A stretch of DNA of 64,000 nt from an uncultured Candidatus Rokubacteria bacterium (GCA_963789955.1 CAWBMV010000022.1:128001-192000); one strand, 5' to 3'; positions 11,995-24,836 are shown, counted from the stretch's first letter. The notes: generated by a model not told the origin, from the sequence alone. A program made the numbers and translations.

Positions 11995-12090
11995 ACGGAG
12001 CGGCGCATGGTGGGCAGACCGATCGATCGCGCCGGGCTCGGGAGCTCCGGCCGGTGTGGAGCTTTCTACGCCGACGCGTGTCGTATCTGA

Positions 12091-12330
12091 ATCGCTCGCC
12101 TCGGCCGGCGGGGCCCCAGCCCCGCGACGCTCTGCGGCTCGCGGTTGATCGGATCGCTCGCCTCGATCGGCGGGGCCCCAGCCCCGCGACGCTCTGCGGC
12201 TCGCGGTTGATCGGGATCGCTCGCCTCGATCGGCGGGGCCCCAGCCCCGCGACGCTCTGCGGCTCGCGGTTGATCGGGATCGCTCGCCTCGATCGGCGGG
12301 GCCCCAGCCCCGCGACGCTCTGCGGCTCGC
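12091..12330. repeat. Tandem array of four 62-63 bp units (REP/BIME-like)
   Basis: Units start at 12091, 12153, 12216 and 12279; core gctcgcctcgatcggcggggccccagccccgcgacgctctgcggctcgc with internal hairpin gcggggc-ccca-gccccgc. Confidence 0.95.
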
Positions 12331-12331
12331 A

Positions 12332-13100
12332 CTACCGGGGCTGCATCCGGATCGCGCCGTCGAGGCGAATGGTTTCGCCGTTCAGCATCGAATTCTCGAT
12401 GATGTGCGCCGCCAGGGCGGCGAATTCGGGCGGCCGGCCGAGGCGCTGCGGGAACGGCACCTGCTTGCCGAGTGAAACGCGGATCGGATCGGGCAGGGTG
12501 GCCAGGAGCGGCGTGTCGAAGATCCCGGGTGCGATCGTCACGACGCGAATGCCGAGCTCGGCGAGATCACGCGCGACCGGCAAGGTCATGCCGACGATGC
12601 CGCCCTTCGAAGCGGAGTACGCGGCCTGGCCGATCTGACCATCGAAGGCCGCGACCGAGGCGGTGTTGATCACGACGCCTCGCTCGCCTTCGGGACCGGG
12701 AGCGTTCTTGGCCATGAGCGCGGCGGTGAGGCGGATGCAGTTGAAGGTTCCGATGAGGTTCACCTGGATGACGCGGGTGAATTCTTCGAGCTTCGCCGGG
12801 CCTGATTTGCCGACGGTCTTCATCGCGGTGCCGATGCCGGCGCAGTTGACGAGCACGTTGATGCCGCCGAGCCGGTCACCGGCGGTCTGGAGAGCCGCGC
12901 TCACCTCGTCGGCGTTCGTGACGTCGGCGGGGGTGAAGATCGCGCGCTGGCCCATGGCTTTTGCGGTTTCGGCGCCCGGCGACGCCGGACGGTCGAGCAA
13001 TGCGACGGTGGCCGCCAGCCGCGAGGAGACGTTCGGCAGTGGCGCGCCCGAGCCCCGAAGCGCCTCCGGTCACGACGGCTTTCACGCTGCGAAGTTCCAT
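12332..13100 (-). CDS. 3-hydroxyacyl-CoA dehydrogenase type 2-like SDR; frame break near 13015
   Basis: [47 protein letters not shown]. Confidence 0.92.
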
Positions 13101-13233
13101 TGGCTCCTCCTGGGCTCGCATTCTAGCCGATCGCGTCTGTCCGGGCTGATCCCCACTATCTAGTGGCGTTTTCCCGCTCGTTCCCCTACATCTTCGTCTT
13201 GCCTGATACTCGTCATGTGATTAGCATTTCGGC

Positions 13234-13794
13234 ATGGGCGACCGCCTGGCGCCGATTCGAGGCGAGATCACCGAGATCGTCGGCGGGCTCTCGTCCGGTC
13301 GCACCAGCCATCTGCTCGCGTGTCTGGGCGAGGTCGTGGACCGAGGCGAGACCGCGGCGCTCGTCGACACCGAGGAGATCTTCGACCCGGGATCGGCCGC
13401 GTCGGCCGGAATGGACCTCCGCCGTCTCCTGTGGGTTCGTTGTGGAAGCAATCGTGAGGTGGCGCTTCGCGCCGCCGACATGCTCGTTCGCTGTCCGGGA
13501 TTCGCGCTGGTCGCGCTGGATCTGGGCGAGCGGGTGCCACGCCTGACGACGACCATGGCGTTTCGGCTGAAGTTCGCGGTGCGGCGAACCGACGTCGCCC
13601 TGCTGATCGTCGGTCGTCGCCGTCTCACCGGAGCGAGCGCGGCGCTGGCCGTCGAGACGCTCCGAGAGGGGATCGAGTGGGCCGGGCCGGGGGCCGCCCC
13701 CACGCGGCTCGCGCGCGTACGCACGACGACGCGTGTGCTCCGTGCTCGCGGCGGCGCGCCCGGACGGCAACCGTCGAGCTGGTGGAGCGCGTGA
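13234..13794 (+). CDS. imuA: ImuA, RecA-like mutasome accessory protein
   Basis: GEITEIVGGLSSGRTS, AALVD, GMDLRRLLWVR; directly upstream of imuB-dnaE2; TAGCAT 6 nt before the ATG. Confidence 0.8.
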   Translation: MGDRLAPIRGEITEIVGGLSSGRTSHLLACLGEVVDRGETAALVDTEEIFDPGSAASAGMDLRRLLWVRCGSNREVALRAADMLVRCPGFALVALDLGERVPRLTTTMAFRLKFAVRRTDVALLIVGRRRLTGASAALAVETLREGIEWAGPGAAPTRLARVRTTTRVLRARGGAPGRQPSSWWSA

Positions 13795-15314
13795 GCCGGT
13801 TCGCGTGCATCCTGGTCGAGCATTTCGACGCGGCAGCCGTCGAGCGGTGCGAGCCCGCGCTCCGCGAGCGCCCGCTGGCGATTCTCAATCCCCGGGTCGA
13901 TCGCCCGAACGTCGGGCGCGCCGGCGCTCCGACGGCCAGGATCATGACGACCATCGAGGCGAACGTCGCCGCCCGCGAGCAAGGCGTGCGCCCGGGCATG
14001 ACCGAGACAGAAGCGCGGGCCCGCTGCCCGATGCTGGTCACGCGGCCGCGGGTCGAGGAACACGTCGCGTCGGCGCGTCACGCGCTGCTCGAGGCCGCGC
14101 TGGCCGTTTCGCCACGGATCGAGGACGGCGGAGCGGGGCTCGCGTACATCGATACGGTCGGGCTCGAGCGGCTCATCGGCGATCCCGCGACGATCGGACG
14201 ACGTCTCGTGCATCAGGTGCGAGCCATCGGGCTGATCCCGCGCATCGGGCTCGCGGCGAGCCGCACCGCCGCGCGGATGGCCGCGTCGACGGGATCGGGA
14301 GCGGTGACCGTCATTCCGCCCGGACACGAGCGCGCGATGCTCACGAGGATTTCCATCGCCGCACTCGATCTTGCTCCGGATTTCACGGCGACGCTCGGAC
14401 GCTGGGGAGTCCGGACGCTCGGCGAGCTGGCCGCGCTGCCTCGCGAAGGCCTGGCCGCGCGCCTGGGACCGGCCGGACTCCGCGCTCACGATCTGGCGCT
14501 CGGTCTCGACCGCGATCCATTTCGTCCGTGGACGCCGCCGCCGTTCTGGGAAGAAGCGCAGGGGCTCGAGTGGGAGATCGACTCGCTCGGCGTCCTCGCC
14601 GGGGTGCTCGAGACCGTGCTGGAGCGGCTCTGCCGGCGACTCACGGCGGTGTCGCTCGTCGCCGATTCGCTCGAGATCCGGCTCGGTCTCGCCTCCGGCG
14701 GTCATCATGCGCGAGACGTCTCGCTCGCGTACCCGATGAGCGAGGTCAAGCCGATGCTCACCTTGGCCGTCCTCGACCTCGAAGCGCATCCACCACCTGC
14801 GGCGGTGACGCGAGTCACGATCAGCGCCCATCCGATCCGTACTCGAGAGGGGCAGGGAGGGCTCTGGCAACCGCCCGCGCCTGCTCCTCGCGATCTGGTG
14901 ACGGTGCTCGCCCGCCTCGCGGCTCTCGTCGGCGCCGACAATCTGGGATCGCCCGTGTTGCTCGATTCGCACCGCTCCGATGCCTTCACGCTGTTCGCGT
15001 TTTCGCCGCCGAGCGATGCCGCAGCGGCCGGTCGCCGTGGCGAAGAGTCCCCCCAGGCTGGGCGGCGGCTCGCGCTGCGAAGGATGCGGCCGGCGCGGCG
15101 CGTGGAGGTCGAGATCGCGGGCGAGCGCCCGGTGCGCGTGGAGTCGCGATCCGTCATGGCCTCCGCCGGTCCATGGCGAGGGTCAGGCGAGTGGTGGGAC
15201 CACCAGGCCTGGGCGCGCGACGAGTGGGACGTGGTGCTGGGTGACGGTGCGCTCTGCCGGCTCGTCCGCGATCGACTCGCGGGCCACTGGTATCTCGACG
15301 GCTTCTACGACTGA
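13791..15314 (+). CDS. imuB: ImuB, inactive Y-family polymerase homolog
   Basis: AREQGVRPGM, SPRIEDG, WGVRTLGELAALP, clamp-like QGGLW, C-terminal GPWRGSGEWW and RDEWDV; GTGA overlap with imuA. Confidence 0.88.
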   Translation: MSRFACILVEHFDAAAVERCEPALRERPLAILNPRVDRPNVGRAGAPTARIMTTIEANVAAREQGVRPGMTETEARARCPMLVTRPRVEEHVASARHALLEAALAVSPRIEDGGAGLAYIDTVGLERLIGDPATIGRRLVHQVRAIGLIPRIGLAASRTAARMAASTGSGAVTVIPPGHERAMLTRISIAALDLAPDFTATLGRWGVRTLGELAALPREGLAARLGPAGLRAHDLALGLDRDPFRPWTPPPFWEEAQGLEWEIDSLGVLAGVLETVLERLCRRLTAVSLVADSLEIRLGLASGGHHARDVSLAYPMSEVKPMLTLAVLDLEAHPPPAAVTRVTISAHPIRTREGQGGLWQPPAPAPRDLVTVLARLAALVGADNLGSPVLLDSHRSDAFTLFAFSPPSDAAAAGRRGEESPQAGRRLALRRMRPARRVEVEIAGERPVRVESRSVMASAGPWRGSGEWWDHQAWARDEWDVVLGDGALCRLVRDRLAGHWYLDGFYD

Positions 15315-15317
15315 TCC

Positions 15318-18300
15318 GTGTTCATCGAGCTGCACGCGCAGTCGGCGTTCTCGTTCCTCGAAGGCGCCGAGCATCCCGAGGCGTTCGCCGCCGAGGCCGC
15401 GCGCCTCGACATGCCCGCGATCGCCCTGGTGGACCGCGACGGCGTCTACGGCGCGGCCCGGCTGGCTCGCGCCGCCGCGACAGCGGGCGTGAAGCCGATC
15501 GTCGGCAGCGAGCTCACCTTGGCCGACGGCTCACGCCTTCCGCTGCTCGTGGAAGATCGCGAGGGCTACCAGAACCTGTGCCGCCTGATCACGCGGATGA
15601 AGCTCGGAGCCCCGAAAGGATCGGCGTCACTCGCCCTGGAACACCTCGAGCCGAGCACCGCGGGGCTGGTGTGTCTCACCGGCGGCGCACGCGGCCCGCT
15701 GGCGCTGAGGCTCGCCGCCGGTGACGACGACGGCGCCCGCCGGATCCTGGATCAGCTGGTCGCGCTCTTCGGGCGCTCGAGCTGCTTCGTCGAAGTGCAA
15801 CGCCAGTATTCGCGCGAGCAGGAACAGATGCTCCAGCGGCTGGTGACGCTCGCCCGCTCGGCCCGCGTGCCGCTGGTCGCGTCCAACCAGCCGCTCTTCG
15901 CGCGTCCCGAGGGGCGCCCGCTGGCCGACGTCTTCACCTGCATCCGCGAGAAGACCGATCTCGATCACGCCGGCCGCCGGCTCCTGGCGAACGGCGAGCG
16001 CTCGCTGAAGAGTGCTCACGCGATGACCGAGCTGTTCCGGGACTTGCCCGATGCCCTCGACAATACCGGCGAGCTCGCCCTGAGGCTCGCCTTCACCTTG
16101 AAGGACCTGGGATATCGGTTCCCGGAGTTCCCGCTTCCGCCCGGCCAGACTCCGCTGGGCTACCTGCGGGAGCTGACCGAGCGCGGCGTGCGGGCGCGCT
16201 ACGGCGAGGGCACGCTCGCCGCGCGCGCGCGGCACCAGGTCGCGCACGAGCTCGAGCTCATCGGCCGGCTCGACCTCGCGGGCTATTTCCTGATCGTCTG
16301 GGACATCGTCGAGCACTGCCGCACCCACGACATCCTGGTCCAGGGACGCGGCTCGGCGGCCAACAGCGCGGTCTGCTACGCGCTCGGGATCACGGCGGTG
16401 GACCCCGTCGGCATGGAGCTCTTGTTCGAACGATTCCTCAGCGAAGCGCGCGGCGAATGGCCCGATATCGATCTGGATCTCCCGAGCGGCGAGCGGCGTG
16501 AAGCGGTGATCCAGCACGTCTACCGTCGATACGGACGGCTCGGCGCGGGGATGACCGCCAACGTGATCACGTACCGAGGCCGGAGCGCGGCACGCGAGGT
16601 GGGCCAGGCGCTCGGGCTTCCGAGCGACATGCGCGATCGGCTCGCGAAGCTCGTCGCCAACTGGGGCTACCAGGATCCGGAGGAGCTCCTGACCAAGCAT
16701 CTGCCCGAGGCCGGCTGCGATCCGACCTCACCGCGCATCCGCCGCTTCGCCACGCTCTGGACGCGGATCCAGGATTTGCCGCGCCATCTCGGCCAGCACT
16801 CGGGCGGGATGGTGATCGCCGCGGGCCGGCTCGACGACGTCGTGCCCATCGAGCCCGCGACGATGCCGGGTCGGGTCGTCGTCCAGTGGGACAAGGACGA
16901 CTGCGCGGGGCTCGGCATCGTGAAGGTGGATCTCCTCGGGTTGGGAATGATGTCGGTGCTCCAGGATTCGCTGACCCTGGTGCGCGAGACGGGCGGCTCG
17001 GTCGATCTGGCGCAGCTGCCGCCGGATGATCCCGGCCGTGTACCGGAGCTTACAAGAGGCCGACACGATCGGCGTGTTCCAGGTCGAGAGCCGCGCCCAG
17101 ATGGCGACGCTCCCGCGCGTCCGGCCCGAGCGCTTCTACGACCTCGTCGTGCAGGTGGCGATCATCCGCCCCGGACCGATCGTGGGCGACATGGTGCATC
17201 CCTACATCCGACGCCGGCGCGGCCGCGAGCCCGTGACGTATGCGCATCCGAGCCTCGAGCCGATCCTCCGTCGCACGCTCGGCGTGCCGCTCTTCCAGGA
17301 GCAGCTCCTGAAGATGGCGATGGTGACCGCCGGATTCACGGCGACGGAGGCGGAGGAGCTGCGGCGTGCGTTCGGCTTCAAGCGGAGCGAGCGCCTCATG
17401 GCCGAGGTCGAGACGAAGCTGCGCGCGGGCATGGCGCGTCAGGGAATCCACGGCACCGCCGCCGAGGAGATCGTCCACGCGATCACCGCGTTCGCGCTCT
17501 ATGGTTTTCCTGAGTGTGTCGTCGGTGACACGCGGGTGATCGACGCCGATACCGGGCGCTGGGTGGCGATCGAGGACATCGTGAGCGGACGCGTCCGTGT
17601 CGAGAGCACCCTGGCGTGCGACGAGACACATGCGACTACGCAAGCGCCGCGTGCTCGCGGCGACGCCGAGCGGGCCCCGGATGGTCTTTCGCGTTCGCAC
17701 GGCCCTCGGCCGGGAGCTCATGGCGACAGCCGAGCATCCTCTACTCACGATGAGCGGATGGCGCGCACTTGCGAGTCTTCGTGTCGGCGACCACGTGGCA
17801 GCCGCGCGCGCGCTTCCTGCGCTTGGGCGACGGCGCTGGCCGCGGTACAAGCTCATCGTGCTCGCAGACCTCATCGCTGAAGGCAACCTCTGTCATCCCA
17901 CGACGTTCTATTTCTATACGACCGATCCGCGGCACCGTGACGAGTTCGTGGACGCCGTGCAATGTTTTTCCAATACGCGCGCGACCATCGCGCGCCATCG
18001 GAACTGCTACAGCGTGCACGTCCGCCGCAACGGGGAAGCGGGCCGGATCGGAGCTGTTGAATGGGCGCGGGCACTCGGAATCTGGGGCGCGAACGCGCGT
18101 GCGAAGCGCTTCCCGGCGGAGGTATTCGAGCTTCGCGCGCCGGATCTTGCGTTGCTGCTCGCTCGCCTCTGGGAGGGCGATGGCTCGCTGTCGTCGTCGA
18201 GTCATGCGTCGTACGACACGGCCTCCCGTCGTCTGGCGATCGAAGTCCAGCATCTCCTTTTGCGACTCGGGATCGTGTCGAGGCTTTACACTCGCTCACA

Positions 18301-19696
18301 CCTGTACCGGGAGCGCCGCGTCACCAGCTTCGTCGTCACGATCACCGGCCAGGAGAACTTGAAGTGGTTCTACCGACGCATCGCCTGCCGTTTCCTTGAC
18401 CAACGTAAGCGGCTGAAGGCGAGAGTCCTCGTGCGGGAGGCTGCTCAGCGACGGGCCTCCCGTGATGTCGTTCCGGTCGCAGTCAAAGCTCTCATCGATC
18501 GTGAGCGGCAGCATCGAAGGGTGACCTGGCATGAGGTAGGACATGGAGCCGGCGTCTCACTGCGGGCGCTGGTCTCTCCAGATACTTCGAAGCGCGGATA
18601 TCGTCGCTGGGTGATCGGCCGATTGGCCGGGTACTTTGACTCGCCCGATTTGGCTCGCCTGGCCGAATCGGACCTCTACTGGGATCGAATCCTGGCGATC
18701 GACGCGCTCGAAGTCCGGGAGACGTACGATCTCCACATCGAAGGCGAGCATAACTTTCTCGCGAACGACCTGGTCGTCCACAACTCACACGCCTCCAGCT
18801 TCGCGCTGCTCGCCTACGCGAGCGCGTATCTGCGCGTCCACCACTCGGCGGCGTTCTACGCGGCGCTGCTCAACAACCAGCCGATGGGGTTCTATCACCC
18901 GGCGACCATCGTGAAGGACGCGCAGCGACACGGGCTGCGTATCCTGCCGATCGATGTCACGCGCTCGCAGTGGCTGTGCACGATCGAGCCGACCGACCGC
19001 GGCGACCCGGCGATGCGGATGGGCTTACGGTACGTCCGAGGACTGCGCGAGCGGGTGGGCCGCGCGATCGTCGAGGCGCGCGAGGCGCGCGCATTCGGCT
19101 CGACCCACGATCTCGCTCGCCGCGCTCAGCTCGACCGTGACGAGCTGGAGACCCTCGCGGCCATCGGAGCGCTGGCCCCTCTCGGCGGCACACGCCGGAC
19201 GAATCTCTGGACGGTGGCGGCGCCGCATCCCGGACCGTTGTTCGCGGATCCGCCACGCGAGCCGAGCCCACTGAGCGACATGACCGACGTCGAGCGGCTC
19301 GCCGCCGACTACGCCGGCACCAGCGTGACGCTCGGGCGCCATCCGATGGCGTTGCGCCGCGCGGCGCTCCGGACCCGCGGCGTGCTGAGCGCGCGGGAGC
19401 TCTCCGCGGTGCAGGACGGCGCGAAGGTCCAGGTGGCGGGGAGCGTCATCGTCCGCCAGCGTCCGGGCACCGCGAAGGGCTTCGTCTTCCTGTCCCTCGA
19501 GGACGAGACCGGGATCGCGAACGTGATCGTGACGCCGCCGATCTTCGCGCGGCATCGCCTGGCGCTGGTGTCCGAGCCCTATCTCCTGGTCGACGGGATC
19601 GCGCAGCGGCAAGACGGCGTCATCTCCGTGCGCGCGCGCCGTGCCCAGGGGCTTCCGGCGCTCGGTCACCACGTTCCGTCTCACGACTTCGGGTAA
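15318..19696 (+). CDS. dnaE2: Error-prone DNA polymerase DnaE2 (ImuC), intein-containing; frame breaks near 17035 and 17630
   Basis: ELHAQSAFSFLEGA, GRGSAANS, PDIDLD, RHLGQHSGG, YGFPE-intein-SHA, RQRPGTAKG, C-terminal SHDF motif. Confidence 0.95.
17515..18784 (+). mobile_element. Full-length intein with LAGLIDADG homing endonuclease, about 423 aa
   Basis: N-terminal CVVGDTRV; block B ATAEHPLLT; LADLIAEG, LWEGDGS, VQHLLLRLGI; C-terminal TYDLHIEGEHNFLANDLVVHN followed by Ser; interrupts the conserved GFPE|SHA. Confidence 0.95.
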
Positions 19697-23385: not shown

Positions 23386-23392
23386 GATCAGA

Positions 23393-24836
23393 TCATACCC
23401 TCTCGTCCAGCCGGCGCTGGCGTTCGAGCGCTTCTCGGTACCGAATGTGATGTGCGGTATTGGGCACGAAGGTCTCCCCGGTGGCGTGGAAGGCCGATGA
23501 CAGATCGGGAAGAACCCTGAGTGCCTCCAGGGCGAGCAGGGCGGCGCCTCGACTGGTCGCTTCGGGCTCGACGGAATAGGTGATAGGGCGACCAATTGCA
23601 TCCGCGATGATCTGGGTCCAGGCGCGGGAGTGCCCAAGCGCCGCGCCCGAGGCCGACGATGGCATGTCCGGCCGAGGCGCAGGGCGCCAGCAGGTCGTAC
23701 ACGGCCGCGAGCCGAAGCGCCACCGACTCCAGCGCGGCGCGGACGATCTCGATGCCGCTCGTGTCGAGGCGAAGGCCGCTGATCGCTCCCCGGCGCCCGT
23801 CGCGCCACCCCGGCGCCCGCTCCCCGGCCAGGTGCGGGAGGATCGTGAGGCCGTGGCCATCCGGCGGCAACGCGGCCAGAGCCGCCTCGACCTCCTCGTC
23901 GCTCCCGAGCCGCAGCACGCGACGGCACCACGCATAGATGTTACCGCCTTCGGAGGTCGCGCCTCCCAGGATCGCGTGTTTGCGATCGACCCGGTAGCGC
24001 CAGAGCCCACGCGGTGGGGGCGGTTGATCGCGGGTCACGACCCGGAGCGCCGCGGACGTGCCCACGTTCAGGGCAATCCGCGTCGGATCGACGCAATCGG
24101 ACCCGACGTTGCTGGCGGCCCCGTCGCCGACGGCCGGGAACCAGCTCGCGGTTCGCAGCGCGGGCCAGCGACTCGCCCACGGGGCGCGCAGGCCGTGTCG
24201 AGGCTCGGTGCGATCGCACAGGGGAAAGAGACGCTGCTCGTCCACCTCGGCGGCCGCCATGGCTTCGACGTCCCACCGCGCGGTCTCCTGGTCGATGAGG
24301 CCGGTCCCTGACGCCATCGACACGCTCGTGGTCGCCTCGCCGAACAGGCTGATCTCGAGGAATTCCCCGAACGAGCCCCACCGCGCCACGCGACTGGCCT
24401 CGGTCGGTCGCTCACGGACGAGCCACCGCAGCTTGGCGGGCCAGTACGAGGAGTGCAGATGGCATCCCGTACGCGCGTGCACCGCGTCGTCGTCGAGCGC
24501 CGCGCGAAGCACCTGGGCTTCGGCGAAGCTTCGAGTATCCGCCCACATATATACGGGAGTGATCGGGCGCCCGCCCGCGTCGAAGCCGAGAAGCCCATGC
24601 CAGAATGTCGCCACACCGACCCCTCGGGTCTCCTCGGGAGGCCGATTGGGATGGATCGCGTCCAGGCATGCGACGACCGCCTCCAGCAGTCGGTGCGGGT
24701 CGTGCTCCACGCCGCCGTCCGAGGTGAGCCTCGGAGTGTACTTGACCTGGTGGGAGCGCCCTTCGATCGGCCGACCTTCGCCGTCGTAAAACGCGGCCCG
24801 GGCGGACGAGGTCCCGACGTCGAGCGCGATGACCAC
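23393..24836 (-). CDS. gntK: FGGY-family gluconokinase; frame break near 23650
   Basis: IALDVGTSS, WADTR, ASGTGL, GDGAASNVG, GTSAALR, GERAPGW, EATSRGAA; adjacent to pgl-zwf. Confidence 0.85.

Follow-up and report, generated by a model that had tools for sequence, protein, structure and literature searches.

Why should a homing intein sit in a polymerase that is not essential to its host? The question is raised by a stretch of 64,000 nucleotides from an uncultured Candidatus Rokubacteria bacterium (GCA_963789955.1 CAWBMV010000022.1:128001-192000; here called the window), whose source organism belongs to the Methylomirabilota (Rokubacteria) by the names of its relatives. In this window a class 1 intein of 423 residues, with a LAGLIDADG endonuclease and an accessory domain, occupies positions 17515-18784 of dnaE2, the error-prone polymerase gene of an imuA-imuB-dnaE2 cassette. 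The initial annotation had placed a homing-endonuclease intein at exactly these coordinates, and Pfam recovers both its splicing domain and its endonuclease in the downstream frame (Intein_splicing, E 5e-18; LAGLIDADG_3 [PF14528], E 5e-16). We conclude that the element is most likely an ordinary selfish homing intein in an intact dnaE2, predicted to splice out of its host protein and to supply an endonuclease that would cut intein-free dnaE2 alleles.

The insert begins with a Cys1 codon at 17515, directly after YGFPE, and ends with His-Asn at 18784, before SHASSF with Ser+1 at 18785. It is in frame in the relatives L001-L004, and empty alleles read YGFPESHA. Its parts are as follows:

17515-17815, plus strand: N-terminal splicing region, with Cys1 and block B Thr71 (17726) and His74 (17735)
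17828-18385, plus strand, limits approximate: LAGLIDADG endonuclease domain, with block C Glu122 (17879), block D Lys197 (18104) and block E Asp222 (18179)
18386-18649, plus strand, limits approximate: accessory domain between the endonuclease and the C-terminal splicing region, helical in the model of the L002 orthologue
18650-18784, plus strand: C-terminal splicing region, with block F Asp and His and the His-Asn end

All class 1 residues listed in PMC7765530 and both LAGLIDADG motifs are present. Among the matches listed, the class 1 positions are kept in 115-120 of 120 homologues per position, with Cys1, the block B His, the block F Asp and the His-Asn end each found in 120/120. The two LAGLIDADG helices carry acidic catalytic residues and the block D Lys, and in the same matches the block C acid and block D Lys are invariant (120/120 each) and the block E Asp nearly so (117/120). 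Asp222 is read as Asn in two of four contigs from related strains (places 18179 and 18181), which suggests that decay is under way in some strains. The N-terminal splicing region matches the Ssp and Npu DnaB and Mtu RecA inteins in PDB. A predicted model of the L002 orthologue (87% identical), built from a 74-row alignment, has a predicted local distance difference test score (pLDDT) of 94; a single-sequence prediction (pLDDT 40) was not used. The best match of this model in a fold search is TliVMA (7QSS), with a template modeling (TM) score of 0.74, and PI-PfuI and PI-SceI are also found. The predicted layout is a hedgehog/intein (HINT) fold with an endonuclease and an accessory domain. G+C content at third codon positions (GC3) is 0.74 in the insert, compared to 0.89 in the exteins.

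The insertion point corresponds to the junction of K758 and S759 in Escherichia coli DNA polymerase III (Pol III) alpha, by counting on from F756, and the Ser-His that follows the intein matches S759-H760. In the E. coli protein, H760 is a modelled steric gate and changes at S759 alter fidelity (PMC8485763). As the site adjoins this modelled gate, the unspliced precursor should be an inactive polymerase until splicing restores YGFPE-SHA. The intein would be translated with DnaE2 and leave by class 1 splicing, after which the freed protein would cut empty dnaE2 alleles met after DNA uptake, and repair of the cut allele would copy in the intein plus its adjacent codon. Alleles already filled by their own intein are not cut by a homing endonuclease. 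The intein would thus not be a standing source of inducing breaks, and the earlier suggestion that the endonuclease itself creates the DNA breaks to which the cassette responds is, in that form, unlikely.

The frame of dnaE2 is broken twice in the window, each time by one extra base. The break in the intein (at about 17626) had been noticed initially, near 17630, with the caution that a real frameshift would make the gene a pseudogene; the break in the N-extein (at about 17034) had not been mentioned. The two extra bases are:

17030-17035, plus strand: extra base in the N-extein, read as an assembly error; omitted in four of four runs and absent from L001, L002 and L011-L014
17626-17627, plus strand: extra base in the intein, read as an assembly error; omitted in four of four runs and absent from L001-L004

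The runs are four public ones from related strains, not reads of the source sample, and their covering contigs were compared with the window together with relatives; over the 1314-1528 letters of the long contigs that cover the intein, 24-32 are not those of the window. The whole protein lies in one frame in L001, L002 and L003, and in L004 the intein is in frame, with a break of that locus's own further upstream. As a control, the only dnaE1 found in the assembly (G000:C17:70421-74002), which is empty at the intein site, has three +1 insertions relative to four of four relatives compared, and lexA (G000:C7:45193-45832) is split into two frames. Because the extra bases are absent from all four runs and the essential dnaE1 carries three such insertions, we read both dnaE2 breaks as assembly errors. 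A frameshifted pseudogene, with the intein as a dead remnant, would account for two +1 breaks in one gene, but in view of the run contigs, the in-frame relatives and the same type of error in dnaE1 and lexA it is extremely improbable, and we reject it. Erroneous insertions of one base are frequent in this assembly, and any frame break in its windows deserves suspicion. An extra base at window position 23653, relative to both L001 and L002, in a sugar kinase gene (23388-24836, minus strand) is probably an assembly error.

The intein had been regarded as unexpected in such a polymerase, an impression that a wider survey does not bear out. At least 120 protein clusters from several phyla carry an intein after [YF]GFPE (120/120 among the matches listed, where the source names include Methylomirabilota, Steroidobacteraceae, Sulfurifustis variabilis, Kofleriaceae and Myxococcales). 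The family census covered 159 genomes, of which 123 had a match to the site, giving 124 distinct sites after the duplicate row G090 was merged; the 36 genomes with no match were not counted. The survey of relatives for empty alleles that the initial annotation had called for thus yields 49 filled and 75 empty sites, the latter comprising 36 with an AGY Ser codon, 35 with TCN Ser and four with Ala. By coordinates, the filled alleles comprise 16 full inteins (about 403-424 residues), 31 mini-inteins (137-157 residues) and two that could not be resolved. A second family has the intein in two of its 20 matching genomes. In 300 sampled genomes of the Pseudomonadota (the phylum of L003) all 103 dnaE2-type sites are empty, as are all 14 in 250 genomes of the phylum of L004, the centre genome being excluded in each case. 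The DnaE2 allele is common, not a one-off, yet rare outside the family of the window. One genome bin holds both an empty TCN dnaE2 site and a site filled by a mini-intein (G148:C10 and G148:C13). Empty dnaE2 genes in G034, G109, G027, G020 and G039 have Ala in place of Ser+1 (the equivalent of E. coli S759), which removes the splicing nucleophile and possibly alters fidelity.

In a quick extein tree, filled alleles are sister to empty ones in at least four supported pairs (L008-L016, L007-L020, L010-L035 and L006-L011), and the nearest exteins to that of the window are empty alleles. The codon for Ser+1 follows the same division. It is TCN in 48/49 filled alleles and in 35/71 empty alleles with Ser, and AGY in 1/49 and 36/71, respectively; the association holds within genera (stratified test, p 2e-6, kin not being independent), and in the genus of the window TCN is found in the filled alleles, AGY in the empty alleles that are their sisters. 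If an intein were precisely deleted, TCN would stay behind, so we infer that the filled/empty sister pairs need recombination at the site, either a gain with co-conversion or a replacement in which an empty AGY allele came in. Close relatives switch between full, mini and empty states, and the adjoining codon appears to travel with the intein, as in gene conversion. We take this codon pattern as a footprint of gene conversion and possibly of resistance.

Exchange of TCN for AGY is a silent Ser change that alters non-wobble bases. This raises a refinement of the selfish reading in which empty alleles escaped by moving from TCN to AGY at Ser+1 and now resist the endonuclease, which we regard as possible but doubtful. 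Besides the codon association, it would explain why, in 14 genes of the window's genus, only Ser+1 and Ser+4 among 28 invariant Ser columns mix codon families, with the Ser+1 codon fixed in three intein-free control genera (18/18, 17/17 and 14/14 matches). It would also fit synonymous divergence around the site of 1.6-1.8 times the gene median in that genus versus 0.84-1.27 in controls, and target-site escape has a precedent in the yeast WHO elements (bioRxiv 10.64898/2026.08.13.744650). However, AGY also prevails over TCN (82 to 21) in genomes that rarely have the intein, and it may be ancestral, with TCN simply co-converted, and 35 TCN empty alleles are still uninvaded. Other Ser columns mix in the control genera (3/8, 2/11 and 2/18), and the excess of divergence is modest and not significant in empty alleles of other genera (ratio 1.23). 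Low GC3 at the insertion site was considered as an intein footprint and dropped, as the dip also occurs in two of three control genera. Lower divergence near the site, as expected of a co-conversion tract, was not seen among filled alleles; divergence there is raised in all three pair classes. An extended form of the escape idea is an arms race with a dispensable mutator gene, in which the intein would home under SOS control and the silent exchange at Ser+1 would keep about half of the empty alleles immune and so stop fixation; this we consider unlikely.

As to where the selfish intein came from, the nearest relatives outside DnaE2, among representatives clustered at 50% identity, are DnaE1 inteins at the same site (40-44% identical), with those of DnaB and further P-loop hosts coming next. 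A tree was built from 103 inteins (five delimited representatives, mis-cut or deleted, were left out by hand, and representatives lacking either end were unused); in it, the 20 DnaE2 inteins form one clade (Shimodaira-Hasegawa-like approximate likelihood ratio support [SH-aLRT] 100), sister to 13 DnaE1 inteins (99; 96 in a reduced set), and both lie inside the DnaE-site clade (support 100). For six of these 13 DnaE1 inteins the host protein was scanned, and replicative Pol III alpha gave the best score each time; one cluster bears the name Chloroflexota. That the DnaE2 inteins go back to one origin, in common with the DnaE1 allele of this site, is therefore well supported, and transfer from dnaE1 to dnaE2 is the likely, though not proven, direction. 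One old transfer may have founded the dnaE2 allele, which would then have moved between phyla and evolved its own target preference.

In many relatives (16 loci) dnaE1 is interrupted at the equivalent point by another intein, only 30% identical to that of dnaE2. The two genes are filled independently: only dnaE2 in this genome, G007 and G059, only dnaE1 in G013, G016, G003 and G010, and both in G002, G036 and G029. Origin from this local Rokubacterial dnaE1 intein is rejected, both by its identity and by an approximately unbiased (AU) test on a 30-row set (p 0.0002). The jump from a dnaE1 allele that had been suggested initially thus fits the intein tree, but not with the local lineage as its source. 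That separate Rokubacterial DnaE1 lineage (L036-L048, L050 and L051) itself occurs in full (421-422 residues), deleted (379) and mini (152-155) forms. In P0184, a DnaE1 intein of the dnaE2 intein's family at residue 807 has junctions that read as shifted by one residue, with Cys+1. The dnaB gene of this genome (G000:C1, about 481500-485500, outside the window) contains an additional endonuclease intein, unrelated to the first and inserted in the P-loop behind GRPSMGK; it starts with Ala and ends in His-Asn before Thr, as an Ala-start intein of class 2 or 3.

Indirect evidence for mobility also comes from rates of divergence. The endonuclease domain is under purifying selection, judging from ratios of nonsynonymous to synonymous divergence (dN/dS) of about 0.08-0.17 in the 14 of 15 pairs with finite dS, the other pair being saturated. 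Inteins of one genus resemble each other less than their exteins do (77-87% versus 90-94% identity), and across phyla they resemble each other more (56-60% versus 46-50%), which points to movement of the intein between phyla.

The setting of the gene is that of a mutasome. The cassette lies on the plus strand in the order imuA, imuB, dnaE2 (15318-19696), behind a candidate regulatory site:

13210-13223, plus strand: candidate LexA-type box, an imperfect 5-4-5 palindrome that overlaps the probable -10 region of the cassette promoter; putative and weakly tested
13234-13794, plus strand: imuA, RecA-like, with Walker A and B motifs, resembling the ImuA3 group (Pfam RecA, E 2e-10)
13791-15314, plus strand: imuB, Y-family-like, start codon approximate, in an open reading frame of 13677-15314 (Pfam IMS, E 2e-16)
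15318-17514, plus strand: dnaE2 N-extein, with PHP domain, palm with PDIDLD and KVDLLGL, and fingers, ending in YGFPE
18785-19696, plus strand: dnaE2 C-extein, with Ser+1 (a TCN-family codon) and His, HhH, OB fold and SHDF tail

The polymerase is identified as DnaE2 by its best match to an error-prone C-family model (PRK05672, NCBIfam, for all three host pieces), by its SHDF-type tail and by the imuA and imuB genes upstream. The intact homologues P0123 and P0078 clear the PRK05672 cut-off; P0078, the DnaE2 of Sulfurifustis variabilis, has a low-complexity, Pro-rich insertion of about 130 residues (residues about 475-615) besides its intein. The imuA product matches NCBIfam ImuA at E 3e-4, under the family cut-offs, and imuB homologues sit ahead of dnaE2 in L001-L004. 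The palindrome is conserved upstream of imuA in relatives, and a similar one lies upstream of lexA (G000:C7:45865), so that a lineage-specific LexA box common to both promoters is possible. It was not seen upstream of recA, and a genome scan gave 156 loose matches versus 69 for a reversed control, with no clear regulon. If the palindrome is a LexA box, homing would be tied to DNA damage, with endonuclease and polymerase made together when recombination is active. Upstream of the cassette, a unit of about 57 bases occurs three times in nearly identical form at 12066-12332, between two genes; the repeats show up as a recurring peptide in the open reading frames and are probably intergenic.

Several observations weigh against a selfish, homing intein with this history. 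The LexA box on which damage-induced homing depends is weakly supported. The nesting of the DnaE2 inteins among those of DnaE1 is not secured, as a topology with DnaE1 inteins in one clade and the DnaE2 inteins outside all of them is not rejected (AU test, 30-row set, p 0.059). Intein dS exceeds extein dS in 15/15 filled pairs (0.87-1.9 versus 0.47-0.85), partly an effect of codon bias; the data thus do not show that the intein swept recently between these species, and they fit equally well with vertical inheritance and repeated replacement by empty alleles. No close plasmid or phage carrier of the allele was found, the best full-length matches being 31% and 26% identical. Finally, mini-inteins, which are unable to home alone, outnumber full ones 31 to 16, and their persistence through most of one genus leaves room for host benefit or slow loss.

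Host benefit could take the form of a conditional switch, as had been proposed initially, in which the precursor would splice only on a stress signal (single-stranded DNA, metal or redox) and mutagenesis would be gated post-translationally. The position of the insert next to the modelled steric gate (PMC8485763), where an unspliced precursor would be inactive, speaks for a switch, conditional splicing has been reported for the Mtb RecA intein and is cited for RadA and DnaB (PMC11377839), and mini-inteins persist in 13/20 scored genomes of genus g37. Set against this are the absence of the intein from 75/124 family sites and from 103/103 non-centre dnaE2-type sites in the 300 Pseudomonadota genomes, and the difference in filling between sister species. 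Lasting ability to splice is expected in any case, as the polymerase needs splicing. We know of no sequence mark that defines conditionally splicing inteins. There is no evidence of a regulatory switch on mutagenesis here, and we judge one to be quite improbable.

The homing intein favored here is itself of a known kind, in a host paralogue, DnaE2, for which no description of one was found. Allele frequency and earlier description had been raised together at the outset: the allele is indeed common, but the literature yielded no account of it in DnaE2, with InBase and most subscription papers outside the search. The co-mentions of "dnaE2" and "intein" that were examined concern the cyanobacterial split gene or inteins excised before analysis, and C-family polymerase surveys excised inteins or, in the text consulted, do not mention them (PMC3919608, PMC6511836, PMC12926913). 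Inteins are said to prefer conserved sites in essential genes, and it is still debated whether they act as parasites or as regulators. Here an allele is common in a polymerase that is non-essential and probably inducible, sister species show full, mini and empty states, and an independent allele sits at the same point of the essential paralogue in the same genomes, which together offer a natural paired test of that question. The locus is also a record of a likely transfer from one paralogue to another, and the Ser+1 codon bears on whether hosts escape homing by silent recoding.

Among known systems, the closest are the inteins of the finger-domain hot spot of Pol III alpha (DnaE1), where 116 inteins have been recorded at points a-d and g within 75 residues (Novikova et al., PMC4760082). 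The dnaE2 intein lies in the corresponding region of a protein of the same family: of the scored 50%-identity representatives, 43 are inteins that interrupt DnaE1 at the aligned point (GFNK/SH type), and they are collinear with the query, with identities over it of up to 44%. The host differs, being the non-essential paralogue DnaE2, which is not mentioned in the main text of PMC4760082; neither "DnaE2" nor "error-prone" occurs in the one supplement file searched. In contrast to the split cyanobacterial DnaE allele, the dnaE2 intein is contiguous, with Ser+1. With TliVMA (7QSS, whose accessory domain is described in PMC8966425), PI-PfuI (1DQ3), PI-TkoII (2CW7) and PI-SceI (PMC8966425) it shares the predicted combination of HINT fold, two-motif LAGLIDADG endonuclease and accessory domain, but at 14-18% identity, in a bacterial host gene, and with an endonuclease predicted from sequence and model. 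The class 1 Ssp and Npu DnaB and Mtu RecA inteins are the closest solved splicing domains (E 7e-23 to 1MI8), and RecA is likewise a damage-induced host, but hosts and sites differ, and the DnaE clade (support 100) does not include the inteins of DnaB or of other P-loop hosts. As in the haloarchaeal MCM-d intein (PMC10643990), empty and filled alleles differ at position +1, with co-conversion on invasion, and here four of 75 empty sites have Ala+1; unlike the Pro+1 of MCM-d, an amino acid that blocks splicing, the change in dnaE2 is mostly a silent switch of codon family. The cassette agrees with the ImuA-ImuB-DnaE2 mutasome in gene order and families, and its ImuA keeps Walker motifs like ImuA3 (PMC12926913); it differs in its intein, a word absent from the main text of that survey.

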